64,000 bases of DNA from an uncultured Victivallales bacterium (GTDB lineage: Bacteria; Verrucomicrobiota; Lentisphaeria; Oligosphaerales; JABHEG01), in assembly GCA_964607765.1 (NCBI GenBank), contig CAZSNT010000022.1:12189-76188 (forward strand), written 5' to 3'. A program made the position numbers and the translations under genes. The notes under the pieces are model-generated. The model searched no databases. It was not told the origin of the DNA and worked only from the letters and a program-made list of their open reading frames with translations. How positions within the stretch are numbered: the first letter of the stretch is position 1; every line of letters begins with the position of its first letter. Shown piece after piece: positions 5,293-64,000 of the stretch.

Positions 5293-6324
5293 TCAATGGT
5301 ACACGGCCGGAAGCGTCTTACCTTCACGTGCGCTGCGGTCGGACAGGTCCATGATGTGCACGTTCCGACGCGCCCACTCCGCCGTGATGATGAGCGGCTC
5401 GCCCGTGGTCAGGTGCGCGGCAATATTCTCGTAGAACCGGCCGGCTTTGGAGCCTGGGTTGGGGCCGCGGAACAGCGCATGCCCACCCTCCTGCTGCACG
5501 GTCGCGTGCCACTCCTGGGGGCTGAAGTGGAAGCTGCCGTTCGTTCCGGTTATGTCGAACCAGCCGTCGCGTGGGTGCGACTCGATACGTGAAATGAGCA
5601 GCGTCAGCACCTGGCCGCTGTCGAACCGGACAACGGTGAACGTCTCGTCCTCGACCGTGTCGTCGCCCCAGGGGCTTTGCGGTGCCCAAAACCCGTACCT
5701 GGCGAACCCCGTCACCTCCACGACATCGGCGTCGATCAGTTGCAGGGCGTACTCCAGGAAATGGGCGCCCCAGTCGTAGTTAACGCCGCCCGAGATCGAT
5801 TTGCTGCAGCGCCACCAGGCGCGCGGCCTGCCCCGGCCGCCCGAGTGCGCTTCGATGCGTACCACGTCCCCGATCATCCCAGCCTTGATGTGCTTGACCG
5901 CATTCATGATCCAGCCGTCCCAATGCCGGTTGTGATGCACGCTGATCATGACGTCGTTGGCACGGGCCGCCTCGATCACCGCATCCGCTTCCGCCGTCGT
6001 GACCACGAATGGCTTCTCGGTGATCACGTGCTTGCCCGCCTCTATGCACTGGATGGCCAATTCGGCGTGGCTGTCGTGCGGCGTGATCACGCCCACCAGG
6101 TCCACGTCGCAGTTGGCGAGCATCTCGGTGGCGGACGAGAAGGTCCGAACCCCGGGAAACTCCTCCTCGGCTACGGGCAGGCGCTCCGGGTCAATGTCCG
6201 CCACAGCCACCGGCACCATGCCGACACGCTTCATCGCGTTGAGGTGGTGACGCCCCATGTTGAACGCCGGGCCGTACCCCACCACGGCGACCTTGATATC
6301 TTCGGGCCGGTCAAATCGCTTCAT
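5293..6324 (-). CDS. Gfo/Idh/MocA family oxidoreductase
   Basis: IKVAVVGYG...GVITPHDSHAELAIQCIEAGKHVITEKPF Rossmann/EKP motif. The start is taken at MKRFD (6324). The upstream 44 codons of the track ORF are read from a repeat array. Confidence 0.85.
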   Translation of the reverse strand: MKRFDRPEDIKVAVVGYGPAFNMGRHHLNAMKRVGMVPVAVADIDPERLPVAEEEFPGVRTFSSATEMLANCDVDLVGVITPHDSHAELAIQCIEAGKHVITEKPFVVTTAEADAVIEAARANDVMISVHHNRHWDGWIMNAVKHIKAGMIGDVVRIEAHSGGRGRPRAWWRCSKSISGGVNYDWGAHFLEYALQLIDADVVEVTGFARYGFWAPQSPWGDDTVEDETFTVVRFDSGQVLTLLISRIESHPRDGWFDITGTNGSFHFSPQEWHATVQQEGGHALFRGPNPGSKAGRFYENIAAHLTTGEPLIITAEWARRNVHIMDLSDRSAREGKTLPAVYH

Positions 6325-6338
6325 GTGGTCTCCGAGAG

Positions 6339-6432
6339 ATTGCTGGGTTGTTGGATTATTGGACTGGTGGGTTGCCGGATCCAGGTTCCTCCCCACTCCT
6401 CGCTCCCCGCTCCCCGCTCCCCGCTCCTCACC
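6339..6432. repeat. Composite short-tandem-repeat element in the pfk-to-oxidoreductase spacer (TTGCTGG/GTTGTTG-type block plus CGCTCCC heptamers)
   Basis: Read directly. 6339-6378 is attgctgggttgttggattattggactggtgggttgccgg. 6388-6432 reads on the minus (mRNA) strand as TGA GGAGCGG GGAGCGG GGAGCGG GGAGCGA GGAGTGG GGAGGAA, starting at the pfk stop codon. Confidence 0.9.
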
Positions 6433-7744
6433 AGTATTTGTGCTGCTGGGTGACACTCAGCACGCTCTGCCAGAGCTGTCCTTTCGGATCCACTTTGCGC
6501 CGGCTGCGCGTGGCCAGGTCGATCGGCACGCAGGTGAAGTGGCCGTGCCAGTAGCCGATGACGACGTTGGTCATCCCCGCCATGGCCGCGTGTACCGCGT
6601 TCTGGGCCAGATGCAGGCAGAATACCGCGTCCGTACCGAGGGCCGGCACGCTTCGGACCAGGTAGCTCGGATCGAAGTAGCGGATAGCGTGGTCCACGCT
6701 GCGTCCCGTGAGATACTCGGAGATCCGGCCCTTGAGGAACAGCCCGATGTCCTGGTGCAGGACATTGCCCGAGGCGTCGGTGCGCTGGGCCTCACTGTCG
6801 AACAGCTCCTGGCCCGCGCCTTCAGCCACCACGATCACCGCGTGCTGCTTCTCGATCAGCCTGCGTTCGAGAGCGGACAGGAAACCGGTGGCTCCTTCCA
6901 GCTCGAAAGGGACCTCCGGAATGAGACAGAAATTGACGACCGAGTTGGCCAGGCTGGCACTGGCCGCGATGAATCCGGAGTCGCGCCCCATGAGCCGGAC
7001 CAGACCGATGCCGTTGAACGCGCCCTTTGCCTCGGAATGCGCGCAGCTGATAACCGGCGCGGCGGCGTACACGGCCGTCTCGTAACCGAACGTGCGTTCC
7101 ATGAAATTCAGGTCGTTGTCGATCGTTTTCGGGATACCCACCACGCTGACGGGCATCTGCCTTTCGCGCAGCGCGTTGGCAATGTCTCTGCCGCCCCGCT
7201 GCGTGCCGTCGCCACCGATCGTGAAGAGCATGTTGATGTTCAACCGGTCAAGGGTGCGGACAATCTCGTCGGTGTCCTGTTCGCCCCGCGACGAACCGAG
7301 GATCGACCCGCCATTTTCGTGGATCGGGTCAACGCTGTCAGGGTCAAGATGCAGCGGCTCCAGGCCATAGTCGGGGACCAGCCCACGGTAGCCGTATCGG
7401 ATCCCGAATATGTTGTCCACGCCATAATCCAGGCTCAGCGTGTTGACCAGCGCTTTGATGACGTCGTTGATGCCGGGGCACAGGCCGCCGCAGGTCACAA
7501 TGGCCGCGCGCGTCCAGGCAGGGTCGTGGAAGATCCGCTGGCGCGGTCCGGCCGCGACGAACCCGGGAACGGGCTCCCCGGCAGCAGCCAGCTCAGTCAA
7601 TTGCTGCGTGTCGGCATGGAATGCAATGCGGGCGTCGTCGTCCACAAACGAGACGCCGTGCAGGCCGGACTTGAGGGTGGGCTTACCGACGCGCCGTACG
7701 TCGAAGTCAGCGGCTTGGATGTCTGCGTTGTTTGCGGCTGTCAT
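6428..7744 (-). CDS. pfk: 6-phosphofructokinase (long ~440 aa clade; phosphoryl donor not decidable from sequence)
   Basis: CGGLCPGINDV, TIGGDGTQRG and PKTIDNDL motifs. Confidence 0.9.
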   Translation of the reverse strand: MTAANNADIQAADFDVRRVGKPTLKSGLHGVSFVDDDARIAFHADTQQLTELAAAGEPVPGFVAAGPRQRIFHDPAWTRAAIVTCGGLCPGINDVIKALVNTLSLDYGVDNIFGIRYGYRGLVPDYGLEPLHLDPDSVDPIHENGGSILGSSRGEQDTDEIVRTLDRLNINMLFTIGGDGTQRGGRDIANALRERQMPVSVVGIPKTIDNDLNFMERTFGYETAVYAAAPVISCAHSEAKGAFNGIGLVRLMGRDSGFIAASASLANSVVNFCLIPEVPFELEGATGFLSALERRLIEKQHAVIVVAEGAGQELFDSEAQRTDASGNVLHQDIGLFLKGRISEYLTGRSVDHAIRYFDPSYLVRSVPALGTDAVFCLHLAQNAVHAAMAGMTNVVIGYWHGHFTCVPIDLATRSRRKVDPKGQLWQSVLSVTQQHKYW

Positions 7745-18726: not shown

Positions 18727-19734
18727 CTACCGAAACCAGCCGCGTCTCCTACGCCGGCGCCGGCGCCGGCCCGGGTCGTCGTCATCGTCGTCATCATCGT
18801 CGTCATCATCGTCGTCATCGTCGTCGTCATCGTCGTCCCCGGGATTGTCCCCGTCTTCCGTCCCGTCGCCTCCGGGCAGTTGGTTGACCTCGCGCCGCGT
18901 GGTCTCGTTCTCGACCGTGCCGCTTGCCTGCGTGAACAGGCCGGAGTTCGTTGCCGTGGCTCCGGTCAACGCCACGGCGCCGCTGCCTACGCGCAACTCG
19001 GTCTGGGCGTGCGTGTCGTTCACGCTCGTGTCGACAATGAACTGTGTGCCCACAACACCGGCGATGGCCGCGGGGGTCACCACCTCGAACTTGGACTTCG
19101 GCGTGCGGTTCGAGGGCACGCTCACGTTGATGCTGGTGGCGCCGTAGTCCTCGAACACGCGGATGATCGAGTACAAACGCCCGTCCATGGAACGGATGGA
19201 CGTCAGGACCATCGCCCGGCCCGACAGGCTCGCCGTGGAGCCGTCCTCAAACGTGAGAACGCCGCCCGTTACCTCGTCGCCCGGATTTACGGGCTTGCCG
19301 TCGTGCAGGATCACACCGTTGTGGAACGCTCGCGTGCCCCTGCCCGGCGCGAAATTCACCACTTGATGGTGTGGACAGCCGGCAAAGTAGCTGTCGAGCT
19401 GCGCATGCTCGTCCTGTTCTTCACCCATGGCCCTGGGCACGTAGTACATCTCGTAGTTGTTCCCCGTGGTGGGGCAGTACCAGCTGTCCTTCTCTCCCCC
19501 GTGGTACTTGGCCAAAGCGGTCTGAAGCCCCTCGTGCGCGGGATAGCTCTGGTTGTCGTTGTAGAACAACTGAACGGCCATGGAGATGCCGCGAATGTTG
19601 TTGATACACTCCGCCTGGGCGGCACGCTCGGAAGCCTTGCGGATCACTGGTACCACCAGCGCCATGAGCACAAAGACCATGCTCAGTGCTACAAGCAGTT
19701 CGGTGAGACTGAAGACGTTCTGTTTGCTTCTCAT
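18727..19734 (-). CDS. Pseudopilin-like protein (prepilin-type N-terminal helix) fused to a FecR-like domain, with Asp21-Pro-Gly-Arg9 C-terminal tail
   Basis: N-terminus NVFSLTELLVALSMVFVLMALVVP. Central/C-terminal TPAAIAGVVGTQFIV resembles FecR-domain strands. The tail is read directly. Confidence 0.8.
   Translation of the reverse strand: MRSKQNVFSLTELLVALSMVFVLMALVVPVIRKASERAAQAECINNIRGISMAVQLFYNDNQSYPAHEGLQTALAKYHGGEKDSWYCPTTGNNYEMYYVPRAMGEEQDEHAQLDSYFAGCPHHQVVNFAPGRGTRAFHNGVILHDGKPVNPGDEVTGGVLTFEDGSTASLSGRAMVLTSIRSMDGRLYSIIRVFEDYGATSINVSVPSNRTPKSKFEVVTPAAIAGVVGTQFIVDTSVNDTHAQTELRVGSGAVALTGATATNSGLFTQASGTVENETTRREVNQLPGGDGTEDGDNPGDDDDDDDDDDDDDDDDDDDDDPGRRRRRRRRRGWFR
18742..18837 (-). repeat. 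Coding homopolymer tracts: 21 Asp codons (18775-18837) and 9 Arg codons (18742-18768)
   Basis: Counted codon by codon: 14 GAC + 7 GAT, and Arg encoded by 5 different codons. Confidence 0.95.
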
Positions 19735-24107: not shown

Positions 24108-24124
24108 GTTCCCGCTACTCGCTA
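24108..24124 (-). repeat. GAGTAGC x2 heptamer mini-array overlapping the pspA stop codon
   Basis: The minus strand reads GGC GAG TAG CGAGTAGCGGG. It is the same unit as the arrays at 28910 and 39097. Confidence 0.8.
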
Positions 24125-24802
24125 CTCGCCGGCGTGCGGCTTGCCGCCAGCCCGCTGTTTCATCTCTTCGAGCTCACGCTCAATATCCTCGTCACCGGTC
24201 AGTTCGGCAAACGCTTCGTCCAGGGCGCTGCCGCGTCGGCTGTCGTTCACCAACTCCGCAGCAGCCTCCATGCGCTCGATTCGCCCCTCGAACTGCTCGA
24301 ACCGTACCCACGCATCACTCGTGTCGGCGCGGCGGATGCCCTGCTGCGCCTGACGCTTGCGTTGCGCATGAATGTGGCGTCGCACCAGCACACGGTGCTT
24401 CTCACGTGCCGAGCTCAGCTTGTCCTCCAACTGATCGATGTCGCGGCGGTGCTGCTCGATCAGCTCCTGACACTCGGCCGCCTCCCGCTCGAGCGCATCG
24501 ACCCGATCAGTGCACTGTCGCTTGCGCAACAAGGCCTCCCGCGTCAGGCCCTCACACCCTTTGCTCAACGCCAACTCGGCGCGCTCGGACCAGAGCGTGA
24601 CGTTCTGTCCGGCCGCTTCCAGCTCACGCTCGATCTTCTTCCGTGTCGCCATTGTCCCGGCGCAGGACGCTTTGATCTCGACCAGCGTGTCCTCCATCTC
24701 CTGGATCATCAGCTTGATGAGCTTCTCCGGATCCTCCGCCTTCTCCAGCATCGCATTGATGTTCGAGCTCACAATGTCACGCAATCGTGTGAAAATGCCC
24801 AT
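24122..24802 (-). CDS. pspA: Phage shock protein A (PspA/IM30 family)
   Basis: MGIFTRLRDIVSSNINAMLEKAEDPEKLIKLMIQEMEDTL is a canonical PspA N-terminus. The start is taken at 24802. Confidence 0.92.
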   Translation of the reverse strand: MGIFTRLRDIVSSNINAMLEKAEDPEKLIKLMIQEMEDTLVEIKASCAGTMATRKKIERELEAAGQNVTLWSERAELALSKGCEGLTREALLRKRQCTDRVDALEREAAECQELIEQHRRDIDQLEDKLSSAREKHRVLVRRHIHAQRKRQAQQGIRRADTSDAWVRFEQFEGRIERMEAAAELVNDSRRGSALDEAFAELTGDEDIERELEEMKQRAGGKPHAGE

Positions 24803-24881
24803 GATAGTGCCTCGCTTCTCATCGCCCGGTGGGCGTCTGCGCCGACTCACGTCCGGCTCCTGCTCGATTCGCCAACCCCAA

Positions 24882-24897
24882 TGCACACTTCAAGCCA
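24882..24897 (-). promoter_or_regulatory. Candidate sigma-54 (-24/-12) promoter for pspABC
   Basis: The minus strand reads TGGCTTGAAGTGTGCA: GG and GC with the canonical 10-nt separation. It lies about 80 nt upstream of the pspA ATG and is divergent from pspF. Confidence 0.55.
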
Positions 24898-27997: not shown

Positions 27998-28040
27998 AAC
28001 GCCTTGGCGGCGCCCCTGCCGCCAGGGCGTTCCCTTTTTT
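27998..28040 (+). terminator. Rho-independent terminator after the corrinoid protein gene
   Basis: About 15-bp stem aacgccttggcggcg / tgccgccagggcgtt with a cccc loop, followed by cccTTTTTT. Confidence 0.7.
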
Positions 28041-28054
28041 GCGGAGATGGCACA

Positions 28055-28909
28055 ATGCAGTTCGTACTGTTCTCGAAGCACTGGAAAGAGCTCGACATCG
28101 AGGGGATGGTCGAGCGGACACTCGAGATTGGCGCCGACGGCGTGGACCTGGCCGTGCGCCCCGGCTTCGTCGTCAATCCGGACAATGTGCGCACGGAGCT
28201 TGCGCCTGCCGTCGCCAAGTTCCGCGCGGCCGGGCTCGACGTGCCCATGATCTCGACGGACGCGGGTTTCATCAGCCCGGACGACCCCGTTGCGGAGTCG
28301 ACGGCGGCTGCGCTCCAGGAGGCCGGCGTGCGCTACGGCAAGCTGGGCTACTGGCGCTGGCGCGACGGCGAGACCCCGTACTGGGAGCAGGTCGCGAAGA
28401 TCCGGCATGACCTGGAAGGGTTCGAAGCGCTCGGCCGCAGGTACGGCGTGACCTTCTGCTACCACACGCACAGCGACTACTTCGGGCTCAACGCGGCCGC
28501 CATGATGGACTTGCTCGAGGGCCGCGACCCGCAACACATGGGCGCGTACCTGGACACGGGCCACCTGCACTACTGCGGCGAGCCGTACCCCATGGCCATC
28601 GACATCGTGGGGCGCTATCTCACGCTCGTCTCGTTCAAAGACACGTCGTTCAAGCGCGTGAACGACGAGGCGGAGGAGCTGCCGGAGTGGAAGCGCGTCA
28701 TTGTGCCCGCCGGTTACGGCGTGGTGAAGTGGCAGAGCGTGTTCGGCGGCCTCATCAAGGCCGGCTACGACGGCGTGTGCAGCTGTCATTGCGAGTTCGC
28801 TGCGTCATCCCCGGAGGAGTTCCTGCACCTGCAGAAACGCGAGGTCGCGTATCTTCGCAATCAGCACGCGCAAGCGCAAACCCGTGCCGCCGCGGCATCG
28901 ACTCAGTAA
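28055..28909 (+). CDS. Sugar phosphate isomerase/epimerase (xylose isomerase-like TIM barrel)
   Basis: Family-like pattern (GADGVDLAVRP...CYHTHS...YLDTGH). ATG at 28055. Confidence 0.8.
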   Translation: MQFVLFSKHWKELDIEGMVERTLEIGADGVDLAVRPGFVVNPDNVRTELAPAVAKFRAAGLDVPMISTDAGFISPDDPVAESTAAALQEAGVRYGKLGYWRWRDGETPYWEQVAKIRHDLEGFEALGRRYGVTFCYHTHSDYFGLNAAAMMDLLEGRDPQHMGAYLDTGHLHYCGEPYPMAIDIVGRYLTLVSFKDTSFKRVNDEAEELPEWKRVIVPAGYGVVKWQSVFGGLIKAGYDGVCSCHCEFAASSPEEFLHLQKREVAYLRNQHAQAQTRAAAASTQ

Positions 28910-29016
28910 CGAGTAGCGGGGAGCGAGTAGCGAGTAGCGGGGACAGAGGAATGCCTGGCGCCTAACCCCTAACGCCTAGCGCCTAACCCCTAACGCCTAG
29001 CCCCTAACCCCTGACG
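28910..29016. repeat. Composite heptamer element: [GAGTAGC/GGGGAGC]x5 - spacer - [CCTAACC/CCTAACG/CCTAGCG]x8
   Basis: Read directly. The first block starts right after the TAA of the plus-strand gene. The second block (28961-29016) encodes the last 8 codons and the TAG stop of the minus-strand HlyD gene. Confidence 0.92.
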
Positions 29017-30487: not shown

Positions 30488-31036
30488 TCACGTTTCGGTC
30501 GAGACGAGCATCTGGCTGTGCGCATCCAGATCCGCGATATTCTCTATCTCGAAGCGGTTGCCGTCAACATCGCTGATCAGGTAGCGCCCGTGCGGCAGAA
30601 TGCGAATGTGGCGGTTCCGATCGCTGACTTCGAACGTGGCCGCGCCGCGGTCCGTGTCCACGTCCCAGAGCGAAACGCCCATCGCTTCGGTGACCTCGTG
30701 CACGCATTGGATCCGGGCCACGTAATACATGCGGCCCAGGGCCTGTTGCAGCGCCCCGGCGCTCGCTTCGTCCAGATGCTCAGGGTCGCGCAGCAGTACC
30801 TTCTCCACGCCGCGATCGTCGACGAAGCTGATGTAGCTCGCCTTCGTCGAAAGCGGAAACACGCGCCGTGGCCGGAGTCCGGCGAAATCCTCGTCCGCAA
30901 CCGTTACGTGCAGCTCGCACGCATCGTCTTCCCAGACCCGGGTCGCCGCCGCCTCAACGGCCCACTCGACAGCGGGGCCCGAGGTCGCGCCGGACGGCGT
31001 GTCCGACACTGGCTCTTTCTCTTCCGTTTGCTGCAT
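30488..31036 (-). CDS. DUF1854-like protein (small cytoplasmic partner of ABC exporter)
   Basis: Position between the ABC and HlyD genes. The sequence (LRPRRVFPLS...YISF...RIL.HGRYLI.D..GNRF.I) recalls DUF1854. Assigned from memory. Confidence 0.65.
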   Translation of the reverse strand: MQQTEEKEPVSDTPSGATSGPAVEWAVEAAATRVWEDDACELHVTVADEDFAGLRPRRVFPLSTKASYISFVDDRGVEKVLLRDPEHLDEASAGALQQALGRMYYVARIQCVHEVTEAMGVSLWDVDTDRGAATFEVSDRNRHIRILPHGRYLISDVDGNRFEIENIADLDAHSQMLVSTET

Positions 31037-31340
31037 TCCCTCGTTTCCGTTCCTTGTCCCGCTCCCTGTTTCCTCGTCCTCGTCCCCGTCCTCGTCCCCG
31101 TGTCCTCCGCCCTCCGGATGACTGAATGACTCAGTGACTCAGTGACTCATGTGGGCTGGCGCTTCGCATCCCGCATCTCCGCCGCTCCCCGCTCCTCCCT
31201 CTCGTTCCTCGCTCCTCGCTCCTCGTTCCTCGCTCCTCGCTCCTCGTTCCTCCCTCCTCGTTCCTCCCTCCTCCCTCCTCGCTCCTCGTTCCTCGTTCCT
31301 CGCTCCTCGCTCCTCGTTCCTCCCTCCTCCCTCCTCCCTC
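31037..31340 (-). repeat. Intercistronic spacer made of phased tandem repeats (20 x 7-mer, 4 x 8-mer, plus purine-rich degenerate heptamers)
   Basis: 31201-31340 is exactly 20 units of CTCGTTC/CTCGCTC/CTCCCTC. 31118-31150 is gatgactg aatgactc agtgactc agtgactc. 31037-31117 is a C-rich degenerate repeat. Confidence 0.95.
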
Positions 31341-33609
31341 ACACCGCCTTCAGGCTCGCAAGCTCGGACTGCAACCGGCACAGTCGCGCGTACAGCCCGT
31401 CCGTCTCAAGCAGCTCGTCGTGCGTCCCGATCTCGATCAGTTTGGAGCGCTCCAGCACCACCAGGCGGTGCGCTTTGCGCAAGGTGGACAGGCGGTGCGC
31501 GATCGCAAACGTCGTGCGGTCTTGCACCAACCGTTCCAAGGCGGCCTGGATCTTGGCTTCGGTTTCGGTATCGACCGAGGCGGTTGCTTCGTCGAGGATT
31601 AGGATACGCGGGTCACGCAGCACGGCCCGTGCGATCGAGATCCGCTGTCTCTCGCCGCCGGACAAGGTCTGACCGCGCTCCCCGATCACCGTGTCGTAAC
31701 CGTCGGGCAGGTTGACGACGAACTCGTGCGCGTTCGCCGCGCGTGCCGCGCTCATGATCTCCTCAGCCGAAGCTTCCGGCTTCCCGTAGGCGATGTTGGA
31801 CCACACCGTGCCGTGGAACAGGTAGGGTTCCTGCAGCACGACGCCGATCTGTTCCCGGTACCAGCCCAGGTCGAACTCCTGGATGTCGCGGCCGTCCACC
31901 CGGATTTCGCCTTCCTCCACGTCGTAGAAGCGCGCTATCAGGTGTACGAGCGTGCTCTTGCCCGCGCCGCTCGGACCCACGAGTCCGATCATCTCCCCGG
32001 GCTCGATCTTGAAGCTGATGTCGTCCAGCGCGTACTTGCCGGGCTCGTAGGAGAAGCGCACGTCCTGTAGTTCCACCGCGCCCTGCATGCGGTTGAGTAT
32101 GAGGCCCGGGGTTTCGAGCGGTTCGGGTTCGGCGTCCAGAATCTCGAACACGCGCTCCGCCGCTGTCAGGCAATGCTGCAGGCGGTGGTTCATTCGCCCG
32201 AACTCCTGGACCGGCCGGTAGAAACGCCACAGGTAGCTGGTAAACGCCACGAGCGTGCCCAGCGTCTCCATGTTGTTGATCACCATGAACCCGCCGACGC
32301 TGAAGATCAGGATGGAGCCCAGCGATGTCTGGATCGTCACGAACGGGAAGAAGGCGCTCACCAGCTTGATCGCCCGCATCTCCTGCTGGAACAGGTCCTG
32401 GCTCTTGGCGCGGAACGTGGCCGCCTCACGCCGTTCCTGTGCGAACGCCTTGACCACCCGGATGCCCGGTATGGTGTCGGCCAGGACCGCGTGCAGCCCA
32501 GACATCCGGCGCCAGATACGGTGATAGAGCAGGTGCATCTTGTGCCCGAACAGCCAGGTGCTGAACATGATGACAGGCGTTGGCGCGAGGGCGAGCAGGA
32601 ACAGGCGCCAGTTCAGGAACAGCAGGATCGCAGCGATCAGCACCATGGTGGCGATATTGACGATCGCGTCCTGGAACCCCTCCGCGATGAAGTACTGCAG
32701 CCGCCCCAGGTCGCTGGTCACCCGCGACATGATCCGGCCCGTCTGGCGTTGGCTGAAGAAGCGCAGCTGCAGCATCTGCATGTGCGCGTAGAGCCGCACG
32801 CGCAGGTCGAACAGCACGCGCTGGCCGACCCATTGCATGACGTAACCACGGAACACGGAGCCGACTGCCGAGAGCAGGTGGATGGCGGTCAGGGCGCCGA
32901 CCACCACGGGCAGAAGCGCGGCGTTGCCGGGCGTGATGACCCGGTCGATCAGGATCTTGGTCAGGTACGGCGGCATGAGCTGGATCCCGGTGATCGACAG
33001 CGTCAGCACCAACCCCAGCAAGGCCATCCACCGGTAGGGCAGCAAGAAAGAAAACAGGCGGCGCAGAATCTGACGGCGGTCCTGGCAGTGGATACACACC
33101 TCGCTCCAACGGCTCAGCGCGCGGCCGCACTGGCGGCAGCGGTGATCCGGGCGCTTGGTGGCCGGCGGCGCAATGTCCTCGAAACCGCGCCCCTCGGACA
33201 GGCCCTTTACGACCTCATTGATGTAGTAGCACAGGTCCGATGCCTCGTGGTGCGAGCCCAGGGAGAAACGTGCCACCTCCTCCCCACCCGTGCTGCACCG
33301 GATGACCACCGCTCCGGAGCCGACGTACGAGCGCAACACAGCGTCTTCCACGTCAGCCAGGTCGGCCTCGTAGACCACCTCGCCGCCGCGCCCGCCGTGG
33401 TCGCCGTCTATGCTCAGGATGCGCGTGTTGGTCAGGAAACACCAGCGTTCCCCGAACGCTCCCGACGGCAGGATGTCCGAGAACAGGCAGGCCACGGCGT
33501 GCTCGCCGGCGCGCAGAGCGTCGTCGAGCCAGACGGCAACATCCGGGGGGAGCGTCAGCTCTCCCAAGGCCGGGTGCCGTACCGAACTGCTGGGGATTGC
33601 ATCGGGCAT
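31339..33609 (-). CDS. ABC exporter, fused permease/ATPase (MsbA-like type I exporter fold) with ~200 aa N-terminal PH-like domain and zinc ribbon
   Basis: Walker A GPSGAGKST, signature LSGGERQR, Walker B ILILDEATS and 6 TM helices. The N-terminal extension contains CRQCGRALSRWSEVCIHCQD. The start is taken at MPDAIPSS (33609). Confidence 0.9.
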   Translation of the reverse strand: MPDAIPSSSVRHPALGELTLPPDVAVWLDDALRAGEHAVACLFSDILPSGAFGERWCFLTNTRILSIDGDHGGRGGEVVYEADLADVEDAVLRSYVGSGAVVIRCSTGGEEVARFSLGSHHEASDLCYYINEVVKGLSEGRGFEDIAPPATKRPDHRCRQCGRALSRWSEVCIHCQDRRQILRRLFSFLLPYRWMALLGLVLTLSITGIQLMPPYLTKILIDRVITPGNAALLPVVVGALTAIHLLSAVGSVFRGYVMQWVGQRVLFDLRVRLYAHMQMLQLRFFSQRQTGRIMSRVTSDLGRLQYFIAEGFQDAIVNIATMVLIAAILLFLNWRLFLLALAPTPVIMFSTWLFGHKMHLLYHRIWRRMSGLHAVLADTIPGIRVVKAFAQERREAATFRAKSQDLFQQEMRAIKLVSAFFPFVTIQTSLGSILIFSVGGFMVINNMETLGTLVAFTSYLWRFYRPVQEFGRMNHRLQHCLTAAERVFEILDAEPEPLETPGLILNRMQGAVELQDVRFSYEPGKYALDDISFKIEPGEMIGLVGPSGAGKSTLVHLIARFYDVEEGEIRVDGRDIQEFDLGWYREQIGVVLQEPYLFHGTVWSNIAYGKPEASAEEIMSAARAANAHEFVVNLPDGYDTVIGERGQTLSGGERQRISIARAVLRDPRILILDEATASVDTETEAKIQAALERLVQDRTTFAIAHRLSTLRKAHRLVVLERSKLIEIGTHDELLETDGLYARLCRLQSELASLKAV

Positions 33610-33810
33610 CACGGACCACCAGTTCCCGCGGGTGCCGGAGAGGCGCTCAAACAGCGCCGGAGCGAAGCCGCACCGTCTCACGGCTCGCCTGGCGGCACGA
33701 GGCATGCCGCAACTCATCAGGATAAACCGCCACCCAACGAAATCAAGAGCCTTGCGGCAACAGGCAGCACGGCACGTGGAAATGCGCCGTGTGTTACGGT
33801 ATGTTAGAAC

Positions 33811-34302
33811 TTGGTTGCCGGCAGGGGACGGCCGCTCCCTGCGCTTAGCCGCAGGGGGAGGAAAGTCCGGACTCCGCAGGGCAGGAAGTCCTTTTGAAAA
33901 GAAGGATACCGCGGACCATATGCCGCGGGAAGGAAAGTGCCACAGAAAATATACCGCTCTTCAGCTGAAGAGTAAGGGTGAAAAGGTGGGGTAAGAGCCC
34001 ACCGCTCGAGGAGAGATCCGAGAGGCAAGGCAAACCCCTTCCGGAGCAAGACCAAATAGGGAACAATGATGCTGCCCGTATCGCTCCCGCACCTAAACGG
34101 CTTTGGCAGTGCTGTTTGCAGACGGTCCAGCCTGGTGCAGGCAGGGCCGGGGACAGCCCGAGCCGCCTAGGTGCGGGATAAGTTCCGGGTTCCGGTCGCT
34201 TAGATGAATGGTCGTCGCCCGTGCCTGCTTCGGTGCCGGAGTTTCTCCGGCTCCGATCGCGGCGCGGGGCACAGAATCCGGCTTATACCTGTCGGTAACC
34301 AG
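33811..34302 (+). ncRNA. rnpB: RNase P RNA, bacterial type A
   Basis: GGAGGAAAGTCCGGAC, GTGCCACAGAAAA, GGTAAGAGCCCACC, CAAGACCAAATAGGG, CTTAGATGAATGG and ACAGAATCCGGCTTA conserved blocks in the canonical order. The P1 pairing is ggttgccggcagg / cctgtcggtaacc. Confidence 0.92.
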
Positions 34303-38376: not shown

Positions 38377-39108
38377 ATGCGCACGTTTCGGAACTTCTCC
38401 TGGAAAGACAGCAACCTGCGGATCTGCTGTAGCCGTGCCCAGGCGGTCGAGAGCGAGATCGTCCGTCAGCGGACCACACTCGAAGCCTACATCGAACGGC
38501 ATCCGGAATTCCGCACCAGTTACGTGCCCGTCGGGCTGCGCAGCGATGCGCCACGCATCGCCAGACTCATGCAGGAAGCGGCCGCACGCGTCGGGGTCGG
38601 GCCCATGGCCGCGGTGGCCGGCACCATCGCACAACTGGCCGCGGAAGCCGGCGTGGCCGCAGGTGCGACAGAGGCCATCGTCGAGAATGGCGGAGACATT
38701 TACCTGATTTCCGACTGTGACATCACCGTCGCTCTCCACACCGGTACGGAGCGGCTGGGCAGTCGGCTCGCGCTCGCATTGAGCCCCGCACACCTGCCGC
38801 TGTCGCTCTGTTCCTCGTCCAGTCGGATGGGACACTCCGACAGTCGCGGTGACTGTGACCTGGCTACCGTCGCCTCGCGCAGCGCAGCCCTGGCAGACGC
38901 CGCCGCAACGCATGCCTGCAACCTGGTGCGTGACCAGGCCGATATCGATTGCGTGCTGGAACAGGTGGGCGCCATCCGCGGCGTTGCAGGGCTGCTGATC
39001 GTCAAAGGCGATCGCGTCGGACTCTACGGCGATCTGCCCCCGTTGGTGAAACACGCAGACCCCGACGTCGGTCTGAAAGTCACAAAGGACCGTCGCAGTA
39101 GCGAGTAA
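38377..39108 (+). CDS. UPF0280 / COG2122 (ApbE-like) protein
   Basis: GVGPMAAVAGTIAQ...ENGGDIYL pattern typical of UPF0280. The final codons and the TAA stop come from the GAGTAAC repeat. Confidence 0.78.
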   Translation: MRTFRNFSWKDSNLRICCSRAQAVESEIVRQRTTLEAYIERHPEFRTSYVPVGLRSDAPRIARLMQEAAARVGVGPMAAVAGTIAQLAAEAGVAAGATEAIVENGGDIYLISDCDITVALHTGTERLGSRLALALSPAHLPLSLCSSSSRMGHSDSRGDCDLATVASRSAALADAAATHACNLVRDQADIDCVLEQVGAIRGVAGLLIVKGDRVGLYGDLPPLVKHADPDVGLKVTKDRRSSE

Positions 39109-39229
39109 CGAGTAGCGAGTAACGAGTAGCAGGCCGCAGGCCCGAATGAGTCACCTAACCCCTAACGCCTAACCCTAACGCCTAACCCCTAACGCCTAAC
39201 CCCTAACACTGAACACCGAACACACCAAC
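39097..39229 (+). repeat. Second copy of the composite heptamer element: [GAGTAGC/GAGTAAC]x4 - spacer with ATGAGTCAC - [CCTAACC/CCTAACG...]x11
   Basis: Read directly. It has the same order and orientation as 28910-29016. The last units degenerate to CCTAACA CTGAACA CCGAACA CACCAAC. Confidence 0.92.
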
Positions 39230-40150
39230 CCAAAGCACATCTGCCTGGTCTTCGTCGACGGCCTCGGAATCCCCGAAGGCGATCCCGCAGATTCGATCTA
39301 CGAGGCGTGCCCCGTATTGCTGCGGCTGCTGCGCAACCACTGTGTGCCGATCGATGTGCATCTGGACGTGCCGGGCGTGCCGCAGAGCGCGACGGGCCAG
39401 ACCGCACTGTTGACCGGCGTGAACGCACCGTCGCTCGTGGGTGCGCACGTGGAAGGGTTCCCCAACGCTCCACTCCGGCGGATTCTTGAACAGGACAATG
39501 TCTTCACGAAGCTCCTCGCCCGGGGCCAGGCCTGCACGTTTGCGAACGCGTACATCCTGGCGCGGGGACCGCATCTGCCGCTTGCGTTCCGTTCCGCGAC
39601 AACCGTGTCGACGCTCGCCGCTTTCGGCACGACAAGGAACCGGGAAGAGCTCCTCGCCGGGCGTGCCGTCTACCACGACCTGACGCGGCACACACTGGCC
39701 GAACGGGGCATCAACGGCATCCCCGTCATCTGCGAGGAAGAGGCCGCAACACACCTCTTGGCCATCGCACGCAGTGTCCGGTTCTGCCTGTTCGAGTACT
39801 TCCTGACCGATCACGTCGGGCATCGCGGCACGGATGCGGATAAACGCTCTGTCCTCGCCTCCCTGGATCGGTTCCTCCAGCACCTGCTGGCGGGCCTGGA
39901 CGCAGAGCGTGAACTCCTGCTCCTGGTCAGCGATCACGGCAACATTGAGGCGACGGACCGCCGCGGGCACTCGCACAATCCCGTGCCCTGGCTCGCGGTC
40001 GGCTGTGCTGCGGAACGTGCGTTGTCCGACTGCTCGTCACTGCTCGACGTCACACCGAAGATCCTCGAACTGCTCGCGCCGTGCCGTCCCGAATTGGAAA
40101 CTGAACAAACGTGCTTACAGTGTATGGCCAAAGGCGACACTGAACACTGA
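39209..40150 (+). CDS. Metalloenzyme (alkaline-phosphatase/iPGM-like, PF01676-type) superfamily protein; start codon unresolved
   Basis: VFVDGLG, SATGQTALLTG, TDHVGH and SDHGN metal-site motifs. The frame is open from 39200, but the first canonical start is TTG 39317, downstream of the VFVDGLG motif. 39209 is an in-frame CTG. Confidence 0.6.
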   Translation: MNTEHTNPKHICLVFVDGLGIPEGDPADSIYEACPVLLRLLRNHCVPIDVHLDVPGVPQSATGQTALLTGVNAPSLVGAHVEGFPNAPLRRILEQDNVFTKLLARGQACTFANAYILARGPHLPLAFRSATTVSTLAAFGTTRNREELLAGRAVYHDLTRHTLAERGINGIPVICEEEAATHLLAIARSVRFCLFEYFLTDHVGHRGTDADKRSVLASLDRFLQHLLAGLDAERELLLLVSDHGNIEATDRRGHSHNPVPWLAVGCAAERALSDCSSLLDVTPKILELLAPCRPELETEQTCLQCMAKGDTEH

Positions 40151-40183
40151 ATCCTGCTGGACAGCAGGAAACACTGAAACCTG
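40136..40183 (+). repeat. CACTGAA heptamers flanking a 7-bp-stem hairpin, overlapping the stop codon of the metalloenzyme gene
   Basis: gacactgaacactgaa tcctgct-ggac-agcagga aacactgaaacctg read directly. Confidence 0.8.
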
Positions 40184-40274
40184 TTCTGTGCCTCCCTCGA
40201 TTGGGTGACACTGAGCGCACGGCGGCCGCTCGCAGCTGCCTTGCTCGAACAGGCTTGACTGGAACGACACGCCC

Positions 40275-47358: not shown

Positions 47359-47396
47359 CGTCAACGCCCTTCCGCCTGCCACCACCCGCAGGCACG

Positions 47397-47502
47397 CCAT
47401 CCGTGGTCGGGCTCTCCGGTATCCGTGGTCGGGCTCTGCCATCCGTGGTCAGTCTGTCCGCCATCCGTGGTCGGGCTCTGCCATCCGTGGTCAGCCCTGT
47501 CC
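47397..47502. repeat. Five imperfect 20-22 bp direct repeats (ATCCGTGGTC-R-G-N-CT-S-T-S-C) upstream of the esterase gene
   Basis: The ATCCGTGGTC core starts at 47399, 47421, 47441, 47463 and 47483, giving spacings of 22, 20, 22 and 20 bp. Confidence 0.9.
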
Positions 47503-47647
47503 GAGACTGATGCGGCCCATCGTCGCCACTATACGAGACCGTTCAGTGGATGCCATCCCGAGCGGCGGAGATGATGCCCCCACGGCGCGCAGCCCTGTCG
47601 TGGCACATCTCTGTTCCGCCACTACGGCATGAAGGACGGTGGGTGAC

Positions 47648-56312: not shown

Positions 56313-56891
56313 TCACTCCCCCGCGTCGCCGCCGTCGCCCCCGGTAAACAGCCGCGTGAGCTGCCACAGCGGCAGCCCCGTCCGCCTCAACACGCTCCGG
56401 CCCGGGCGCTTCAGGAAACACGTCACGCCCACATCGCCGCGTTCCATCCAGAAACACTCCCAGCGCTCCTGCCCCAATTCGTTCAGGCGCTGCTCCGCCC
56501 CGGCAGTATCCCGTGATTCCAGCACGACTGTCTTGTACTCCCACGTCCCGATCTTCTTCAGATCCTCCTTCACCCACTCGCTCACCGTAGCAGGGACCTT
56601 CTCACCCGAGCGTTTCGCCTGTTCATACAGCTCATTGATTCTCCGGCTGATCTTCTTCCGGTCATACAGCTCCTTGACTCTCTGCAGTGCGCCGCTCTTC
56701 TCCTCCTGCTCTTGCACGGCCGGCGTGTCGACGGCCGTGTCCCTGCCGACATTCCCCGTCCCGGGATCCTCCCGACCCTCGGCCGCCACCGCAAACACGA
56801 GCAATCCCAACACAACCGAAACAAGCCCTCTGCCACTCTTCATCCGACTCTTCATCCGACTCTTCATCCCGCTCTTCATCCCACTCTTCAT
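56313..56891 (-). CDS. Secreted DUF4177-like protein with repeat-encoded N-terminus (MKS[G/R] x5)
   Basis: Hydrophobic signal core LVSVVLGLLVFAVAA. The C-terminal GTWEYKTVVLE...LNELGQERWE resembles DUF4177. Five in-frame ATGs at 12-nt spacing. The start is placed at the most upstream (56891), which is uncertain. Confidence 0.6.
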   Translation of the reverse strand: MKSGMKSGMKSRMKSRMKSGRGLVSVVLGLLVFAVAAEGREDPGTGNVGRDTAVDTPAVQEQEEKSGALQRVKELYDRKKISRRINELYEQAKRSGEKVPATVSEWVKEDLKKIGTWEYKTVVLESRDTAGAEQRLNELGQERWECFWMERGDVGVTCFLKRPGRSVLRRTGLPLWQLTRLFTGGDGGDAGE

Positions 56892-56907
56892 CCCACTCTT
56901 GCTCCCT
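56836..56907 (-). repeat. 12-bp tandem repeat (5-6 units) inside the 5' end of the DUF4177-like gene
   Basis: ctcttcatccga x2, ctcttcatcccg, ctcttcatccca x2, ctcttgctccct. The mRNA sense is ATGAAGAG(T/C)(G/C)GG. Confidence 0.92.
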
Positions 56908-63825: not shown

Positions 63826-63902
<77 letters not shown>

Positions 63903-63961: not shown

Positions 63962-64000
63962 GAGTTGCTGGGTTGCTGAGTTGTTGGATTGTTGGACCGG
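63962..64000 (+). repeat. TTGCTGG/GTTGCTG-type repeat block, second copy of the 6339-6378 family (truncated by window end)
   Basis: gagttgctgggttgctgagttgttggattgttggaccgg compared with attgctgggttgttggattattggactgg...ccgg at 6339. Confidence 0.85.

Follow-up and report, generated by a model that had tools for sequence, protein, structure and literature searches.

How did two different heptanucleotide repeat arrays come to stand between two genes of a conserved cluster, and does the pair act as a single element? The question is raised by a composite repeat in a window of 64,000 nt from an uncultured Victivallales bacterium (GenBank assembly GCA_964607765.1; contig CAZSNT010000022.1, positions 12,189 to 76,188 of the forward strand), which has a G+C content of approximately 64%. 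The repeat consists of a purine-rich heptamer array, a short spacer, and a C/A-rich heptamer array at positions 39096 to 39229 of the window, between an AbpE_bact/UPF0280 gene and a gene of the metalloenzyme superfamily. A first-pass annotation, made from the sequence alone, regarded it as one copy of a dispersed modular element. The present analysis favors, with a probability of roughly 0.7, a pair of heptanucleotide simple sequence repeat (SSR) arrays that formed in situ, and neither a mobile module nor a structured RNA.

The purine-rich array (39096 to 39130, plus strand), delimited by inspection of the sequence, Tandem Repeats Finder (TRF), and pattern counts, contains five C/GAGTARC units (CAGTAGC, GAGTAAC, GAGTAGC, GAGTAAC, and GAGTAGC). 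It is 71% purine, with stop codons in all three sense frames and in none of the antisense frames. The nonrepetitive 23-nt spacer aggccgcaggcccgaATGAGTCA (39131 to 39153, plus strand) was read directly from the sequence; it contains a mini-hairpin (GGCC-GCA-GGCC) and, at 39145, an ATG that begins an open reading frame (ORF) of 8 codons that terminates inside the C-rich array. The C/A-rich array (39154 to 39229, plus strand) has eight CCTAACS units, including one 6-mer, and three decayed units, and its 11 units read CCTAACC, CCTAACG, CCTAAC (the 6-mer), CCTAACG, CCTAACC, CCTAACG, CCTAACC, CCTAACA, CTGAACA, CCGAACA, and CACCAAC. This 76-nt block, the complement of a G-rich SGTTAGG array abutting the downstream gene, is 47% C and 7% G, has a minimum free energy of 0.0 kcal/mol, and carries stop codons in all frames of both strands. 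The block sequences, the 11 C-rich units, and the TAA stop codon within the repeat had all been described in the first-pass annotation and were confirmed base for base.

The TRF scores were 68 for the purine array and 101 for the C-rich array, with copy numbers of 4.6 and 7.9 to 10.4, respectively, and a 14-nt higher-order period was found in both. Allowing at most one mismatch, CCTAACSCCTAAC had 13 matches in the window, compared with 0.03 expected, a count reached by 0 of 100 shuffles, and GAGTARCGAGTARC, with at most two mismatches, had 21 matches compared with 0.59 expected, which indicates that neither array is a chance feature. A Logan unitig from SRR8146442, which was assembled independently, is identical to the locus and ends inside the CCTAAC array, although it may derive from the same reads as the source assembly. 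Translation of the array and use of the ATG at 39145 as a downstream start were both ruled out, as a TAA occurs in every frame. With respect to phase variation, the flanking genes are housekeeping genes, the stops in all frames exclude in-frame switching, and the Logan unitigs merely break in the array.

The 39-kb repeat is accompanied by other period-7 arrays in the window, all of which lie between Pfam-supported genes and overlap these genes by 0 to 7 codons. At 28.9 kb, a purine-rich array (28904 to 28952, plus strand) composed of CAGTAAC, GAGTAGC, GGGGAGC, GAGTAGC, GAGTAGC, and two decayed units contributes the final codon and the TAA stop of an AP_endonuc_2 gene (28004 to 28909). It is followed by nine SCCTARC units (28953 to 29016, plus strand), whose reverse complement provides a QGLGARR extension and the TAG (28990 to 28992) of a convergent HlyD-family gene. 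At 31 kb, 22 units of the types GAGGAGC, GAGGAAC, and GAGGGAG (31183 to 31342, minus strand) run from the TGA stop of an ABC transporter gene (31339 to 33717), forming a GAGGARC array of 160 nt that is 89% purine. Five GGGGAGC units (6389 to 6431, minus strand), for which an RNA G-quadruplex is predicted, directly follow the TGA of a PFK gene (6428 to 7744), and two or more GAGTAGC units (24109 to 24129, minus strand) make up the final codon and TAG stop of a PspA/IM30 gene (24122 to 24886). Two ACACTGA units detected by TRF (40137 to 40151, plus strand) encode the final codons of the metalloenzyme gene, with its TGA stop, and share an 11-mer with the end of the CCTAAC array (39206 to 39216). 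In all seven cases in which an array lies at a stop codon (the AbpE, AP_endonuc_2, HlyD, ABC, PFK, PspA, and metalloenzyme genes), the array is purine-rich on the sense strand of that gene.

The arrangement of facing arrays is equally regular. C/A-rich octamers (NCCANCAR, five copies on the minus strand; 6340 to 6379) lie upstream of the start of a GFO_IDH_MocA gene at 6324, and together with the GGGGAGC array at 6389 to 6431 they form a third composite in which a G-rich part is followed by a C-rich part. Three composites of this order and none of the reverse order are present in the window. As the first-pass annotation stated, the 28.9-kb copy (28904 to 29016) has the same order and orientation as the 39-kb repeat; both also have five purine units starting with CAGTA and spacers of 22 and 23 nt, and the two spacers do not align. 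TRF found higher-order periods of 14 and 21 nt in the arrays, which fit slippage of several units at a time. A further observation concerns the octamer family TTGNTGGR, which occurs five times at 6340 to 6379 and four times at 63965 to 63996 (7 matches compared with 0.94 expected); these octamers are C/A-rich on the sense strand and lie just upstream of the GFO_IDH_MocA start and of tRNA-Arg(CCT) (63826 to 63902, minus strand).

Comparison with relatives reveals that the arrays are lineage specific, recent, and anchored at ancestral stop codons. The AbpE gene (38377 to 39108, plus strand; an ORF of 243 amino acids matching Pfam PF27030) ends in RRSSE, and its TAA (39106 to 39108) lies inside the second array unit, the array thus providing the last two codons and the stop. 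The gene belongs to a codirectional four-gene cluster (HcyBio, NIL-ferredoxin, AbpE, and metalloenzyme) that is kept with short gaps in the relative L003/L004, which shares approximately 67% protein identity. In L003, the gap between the AbpE and metalloenzyme genes is 66 nt of unique, repeat-free sequence, and AbpE ends in RRS-TGA compared with RRSSE-TAA in the window, which indicates that the purine array starts at the ancestral AbpE stop. The ABC transporter C terminus aligns with those of relatives to the last residue, and the HlyD C terminus, which reads IWVR-TGA in relatives, reads IWIR-QGLGARR-TAG in the window, with the extension derived from array units. The array start therefore coincides with the ancestral stop codon in three of three testable cases (AbpE, ABC, and HlyD). 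No repeats were found in the orthologous gaps of L003, L117, and L119, and the 302-nt ABC-DUF1854 gap of the window corresponds to gaps of 9 nt (L117) and 50 nt (L119). In total, the 64-kb window contains eight period-7 runs, compared with one marginal run in 65 kb of DNA from relatives (Poisson P = 0.003). Opposite CTGAACA CCGAACA of the window, L003 has the two-unit proto-repeat CAGAACT CAGAAAT.

The C-rich array appears to have affected the downstream gene itself. The metalloenzyme-superfamily gene (PF01676; 39233 to 40150, plus strand) is conserved from KHICLVFVDGLG onward, retains all invariant residues of the family, and has its closest named homologs, with 54% to 56% identity, in Lentisphaeria, Kiritimatiellota, and Victivallales metagenome-assembled genomes (MAGs). 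No ATG, GTG, or TTG occurs between the in-frame stop at 39197 to 39199 and the invariant D20/G21/G23 motif (FVDGLG). In an alignment with L003, the ancestral ATG maps within the CCTAAC array, and on this sequence comparison the CCTAACS array is taken to have overwritten the ancestral start codon and about 20 N-terminal codons. Either the gene uses a noncanonical start, for which CTG at 39209 and ATC at 39239 are candidates, or the array has only just inactivated it. As deposited, protein P0001 (277 amino acids) begins at TTG 39317 and is devoid of the invariant D/G/G motif. Erasure of a start codon by an array can thus mislead automatic annotation, the deposited metalloenzyme being truncated and its invariant metal-site motif lost. 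Two minor features were noted at the other end of this gene. The sequence ACACTGA(A) occurs at 40137, 40144, 40170, and 40207 (within 40096 to 40215), and a perfect 7-bp hairpin (cctgctg-ga-cagcagg, 40152 to 40167) directly follows the stop codon, exactly where the Logan unitig L116 ends.

The feature belongs to the known class of heptanucleotide long SSRs (Mrazek 2007; PMC4692102). As summarized in PMC4679880 and PMC4692102, Mrazek (2007) found that heptanucleotide units dominate the long SSRs of many bacteria and are more common in large, high-G+C genomes of nonpathogens, with polymerase slippage as the proposed origin. The arrays described here are likewise heptamers in a high-G+C genome, whereas anchoring at stop codons and paired arrays on opposite strands were not described in that survey. 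The closest parallel is provided by the intergenic GGGAATC repeats of Xanthomonas and GGGGA(C/T)T repeats of Nostoc reported by Rehm et al. in 2015 (PMC4692102). These consist of 2 to >20 tandem 7-nt units, are strongly intergenic, and lie nearest to the 5' neighboring ORF of their G-rich strand, whatever the orientation of that ORF (PMC4692102). On the coding strand, they are found 0 to 50 bp from a stop codon or overlapping it, and on the noncoding strand, just upstream of start codons; they seldom lie between divergent genes, can form inverted pairs, and differ in length and sequence among close relatives (PMC4692102). The arrays of the window agree with them in tandem 7-nt structure, intergenic location, 5'-neighbor polarity, overlap with stop codons, and turnover among relatives, but differ in their unit sequences, in the coexistence of several unit types, in the noncomplementary arms of the composites, and in their occurrence in a MAG of the Planctomycetes-Verrucomicrobia-Chlamydiae (PVC) group, to which the closest named homologs of the metalloenzyme also point. 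The G-quadruplex capacity of the Rehm subclass is not shared by GAGTARC or SGTTAGG and is predicted in the window only for the GGGGAGC and GAGGARC arrays.

The TAACTGA arrays of marine Beggiatoaceae, cyanobacteria, and Bacteroidetes (MacGregor 2015; PMC4679880) abut start codons and replace the ribosome-binding site. Their stops in all forward frames limit their overlap with coding ends, they have no predicted structure, and they occur in unrelated phyla (PMC4679880). The 39-kb arrays resemble them as heptamers at start codons with stops in all frames, no structure, and a unit found in unrelated phyla, but the unit sequence differs, and a second, purine-rich array is present here at the stop of the upstream gene. 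Only the decayed tail CCTAACACTGAACAC resembles TAACTGA, the GAGTARC and CCTAACS units falling outside that family. Searches of the literature specific to the PVC group and of that on short tandemly repeated repetitive (STRR) sequences and long SSRs (LSSR) returned nothing newer than the 2015 papers, and the literature on the unit sequences was dominated by telomere papers.

According to the explanation by SSR arrays formed in situ, the arrays would have arisen where they now stand, local seeds being extended by slipped-strand duplication of 7-, 14-, and 21-nt units, and growth would have continued up to a limit set by selection on coding sequence. The 9-nt ABC-DUF1854 gap of L117, TGAGGCGCAAAGGTG, contains GAGGCGC, one mismatch from the GAGGAGC unit and, judged by sequence, a plausible seed of the GAGGAGC array. 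The G-rich strand of each array runs 5' to 3' away from the gene it abuts. Since each array is anchored to its own 5' neighbor, following the rule of PMC4692102, facing arrays always read G-rich and then C-rich. The codirectional synteny with short gaps in relatives suggests that the arrays are cotranscribed with their neighbors. It is a tentative extension of this explanation that the cotranscribed, nearly structure-free, stop-rich spacer ends translation robustly and leaves an unstructured A/C-rich leader. The arrays are most likely spacers that were produced by slippage and are tolerated, not a dedicated device. The locus adds a PVC-group example to the class and sharpens its positional rule, in that arrays start exactly at ancestral stop codons, can take over the stops, and pair in a constant G-rich-then-C-rich order, which is also seen at >50 unrelated metagenome loci.

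Conserved secondary structure, which had also been raised for the composite, was not supported by RNA folding. The RNA of the 39-kb locus (39085 to 39245) has a predicted free energy of -15 kcal/mol compared with -26.2 kcal/mol for shuffled sequences (z = +3.27), and 200 of 200 shuffles fold at least as well. The RNA of the 31-kb locus (31030 to 31345, minus strand) also folds worse than every shuffle (z = +2.95), and the remaining two array loci have z values of approximately +0.7 to +0.8. No pairing was predicted between the purine and C-rich blocks, and no Rfam match was found at the arrays when the whole window was searched at the gathering threshold and 12 kb at an E value of ≤1. The positive z values and the lack of an Rfam family indicate that a conserved secondary structure is not what holds the element together. 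A hairpin or structured noncoding RNA was rejected on account of the nonpairing blocks and the positive z values. Promoter counts in the window were at chance level, with none at the array loci.

The same unstructured sequence is what a Rho loading site would offer. As a two-way terminator-insulator, the composite would present its C-rich block as a Rho utilization (rut) site on the plus strand and the complement of its purine block as a rut site on the minus strand, terminating transcription between convergent genes and silencing antisense RNA that enters gene 3' ends. The unstructured, C-rich, G-poor, 76-nt block is like a rut site, a stretch of about 60 to 80 nt, in length and sequence, the complement of the 160-nt GAGGARC array is 57% C and 10% G, and the 28.9-kb copy lies exactly between convergent genes. 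Intrinsic-terminator-like sites are not enriched in the window (8 compared with 7.0 expected), and none lies at an array locus. However, rut sites are not tandem repeats, and the location of arrays inside conserved gene clusters argues against termination. Two array loci lie in clusters that are tight in relatives (gaps of 66 nt and of 9 to 50 nt), where a terminator would deprive the downstream genes of transcription. On the sense strand, the purine-rich block stands alone at several loci, and in other genomes the arms, frequently complementary, would pair and thereby abolish the single-stranded rut site. A Rho-dependent device is thus unlikely, although it survives better than the other alternatives.

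The distribution of the repeats was investigated in other genomes and contigs. A composite pattern (two GAGTARC units, 5 to 35 nt of any sequence, and two CCTAAC units) was searched in one genome per species of 185,579 species, a collection evidently lacking the source genome. The single match, in a Chloroflexota MAG, has different heptamers (GTGAAAC, GTGATGA, and GTAACGA), a spacer, and CTCCTAA. The exact 20-mer CCTAACCCCTAACGCCTARC was found in 108 metagenome contigs with G+C contents of 39% to 70%. The counts do not include telomere-like CCCTAA and CCCTAAA tracts, presumably eukaryotic, which were seen in L008, L015, L031, L040, and other marine contigs. In the remaining metagenome contigs, a G-rich period-7 array within 150 nt of the CCTAAC array was located upstream in 15 cases and downstream in 1. 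When genes were called crudely from ORFs, the median distance of the C-rich array was 2 nt to the gene boundary on the right and 53 nt to that on the left, irrespective of the orientation of the genes (Wilcoxon P = 0.003; n = 29). In L018, L058, L042, and L096, a stop codon is followed by a G-rich arm, a spacer, and a complementary CCTAAC arm that ends 0 to 12 nt from an ATG, with no Shine-Dalgarno sequence, and L039 reads TAG-(GAGGGGC)4-spacer-CCTAAC. The product encoded downstream in L018 (Ga0076006_138) starts with MKGTIAQIIGPVVDVRFEGE and may be an ATP synthase beta subunit, which it resembles. The two arms are complementary in many other genomes but not in the window. Three GAGTARC units were found in nine viral contigs, several of which have a complementary GCTAYTC or GCCATTC arm downstream. 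A CCTAAC scan of viral contigs gave no match, as did its permuted control, and is hence uninformative.

Some of these observations weigh against two arrays formed independently by slippage. The 39-kb and 28.9-kb composites resemble each other more closely than is required of independent arrays, with the same pairing of GAGTARC and CCTAACS, five units from CAGTA, and nearly equal spacers (22 and 23 nt). The recurrence of CCTAACCCCTAACGCCTARC in 108 contigs of such different G+C contents hints at sequence-specific selection or transfer, and the strand polarity is not explained by neutral slippage alone. In addition, the stretch from CGCAG of AbpE to GTSGAC of the FVDG motif is 156 nt in the window (39094 to 39259) and 152 nt in L003 (9926 to 10087), which indicates that the 39-kb arrays replaced about 150 nt rather than adding to it, a length-preserving change contrary to simple expansion.

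The paired arrays might have been produced by a directional process at intergenic breaks or gene boundaries, for example, the addition of G-rich heptamers to both 3' ends of a break followed by rejoining, or they might represent a widespread functional intercistronic module across phyla. Heptamer addition at both ends of a break would produce the G-rich-then-C-rich order, the replacement of sequence, and boundaries reaching slightly into dispensable gene ends, and a module could have its G-rich arm at a stop and its C-rich arm at the boundary of the next gene. The directional growth test revealed no asymmetry, the decay of the outermost units being 1.13 on the junction side and 1.16 on the gene side. 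We consider such a process or module improbable; if it were true, bacterial heptamer repeats would be a mechanistically defined system and not slippage noise.

By analogy with the proposal made for the TAACTGA repeats of Beggiatoaceae (PMC4679880), the arrays might instead be platforms for a sequence-specific RNA- or DNA-binding protein that controls a posttranscriptional regulon. The same heptamer is present in many unrelated contigs, arrays at many metagenome loci end 0 to 14 nt from starts, in place of the Shine-Dalgarno region, and the predicted RNA is single stranded and accessible. However, at least five unit types (GAGTARC, GGGGAGC, GAGGARC, SGTTAGG, and octamers) occupy equivalent positions, the neighboring genes are functionally unrelated, and no candidate binding protein was identified, which makes a binding platform quite improbable.

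A dispersed or mobile composite, in which the GAGTARC block, the ATG-containing spacer, and the CCTAACS block are copied as one unit, comes closest to the first-pass annotation. Two copies with the same order, five units from CAGTA, and a 22- to 23-nt spacer lie within 10 kb of each other, and ATGAGTCAC is common to the 31-kb locus. The block order is also not a chance outcome, being found again at 28.9 kb, at 6.3 kb on the minus strand with other units, in unrelated metagenome contigs (15 cases compared with 1), and in viral contigs. The idea of a copied module nevertheless fails in other respects. The spacers of the two copies cannot be aligned, the scan of 185,579 species returned one unrelated match, and the orthologous gaps of the relative are empty of repeats. 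Neither terminal inverted repeats nor target duplications can be seen at 39 kb and 28.9 kb, and the boundaries coincide with ancestral stops, not with insertion junctions. Repetitive extragenic palindromic (REP) sequences and bacterial interspersed mosaic elements (BIMEs), like MITEs (miniature inverted-repeat transposable elements), are intergenic, often located just after stops inside operons, and built of paired units. In contrast to these, the composites have no palindrome, no full-length sequence shared between copies, and no Rfam or mobile-element signature.

The 31-kb locus, which had been interpreted as the reverse complement of the same architecture, has no CCTAAC block. The match to ATGAGTCA at 31143 to 31150 (minus strand), which had been cited as a link between the loci, is real but at chance level (2 matches compared with 1.39 expected; 44 of 100 shuffles as good). 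Downstream of the GAGGARC array, this locus has octamers ATGAGTCAC, TGAGTCAC, TGAGTCAT, and TCAGTCAT and then purine-rich GGACGA-type hexamers up to the DUF1854 start at 31036 (31047 to 31151, minus strand). TGAGTCAC contains stops in all frames of both strands. The octamers (31118 to 31151, minus strand) carry TGA in all frames of both strands, and the GGGGAC/GAGGAC hexamers (31047 to 31101, minus strand) reach the DUF1854 start, a leader that is purine-rich on the sense strand and an exception to the pattern of C-rich sequence before starts. Copying of the composite as one mobile unit is accordingly very improbable. A role as G-quadruplexes or as another non-B form of nucleic acid, which has been suggested for GGGAATC repeats, is the least credible explanation: quadruplexes are predicted for (GGGGAGC)5 (-22.3 kcal/mol) and, with two layers, within GAGGARC, and the arrays follow the same positional rule as the quadruplex-forming repeats of PMC4692102, but GAGTARC has no GG runs and the SGTTAGG strand is not predicted to form a quadruplex in either composite, so that quadruplex formation cannot be their common property.

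Several features unrelated to the heptamer arrays were also observed in the window. A class A RNase P RNA was found at 33816 to 34301 (215.8 bits), and its length of 486 nt, compared with 367 model positions, indicates large insertions. Five direct copies of the 21- to 22-nt unit GCCATCCGTGGTCGGGCTCT, with a 42-nt higher-order period, are located at 47395 to 47503 in an apparently noncoding region and may be iteron-like or protein-binding repeats. Two 12-nt tandem repeats, GTCGTCATCATC (5.2 copies) and CCACTCTTCATC (5.7 copies), are present at 18775 to 18837 and 56833 to 56900; 12 nt being a multiple of three, they probably encode repeats within ORFs.

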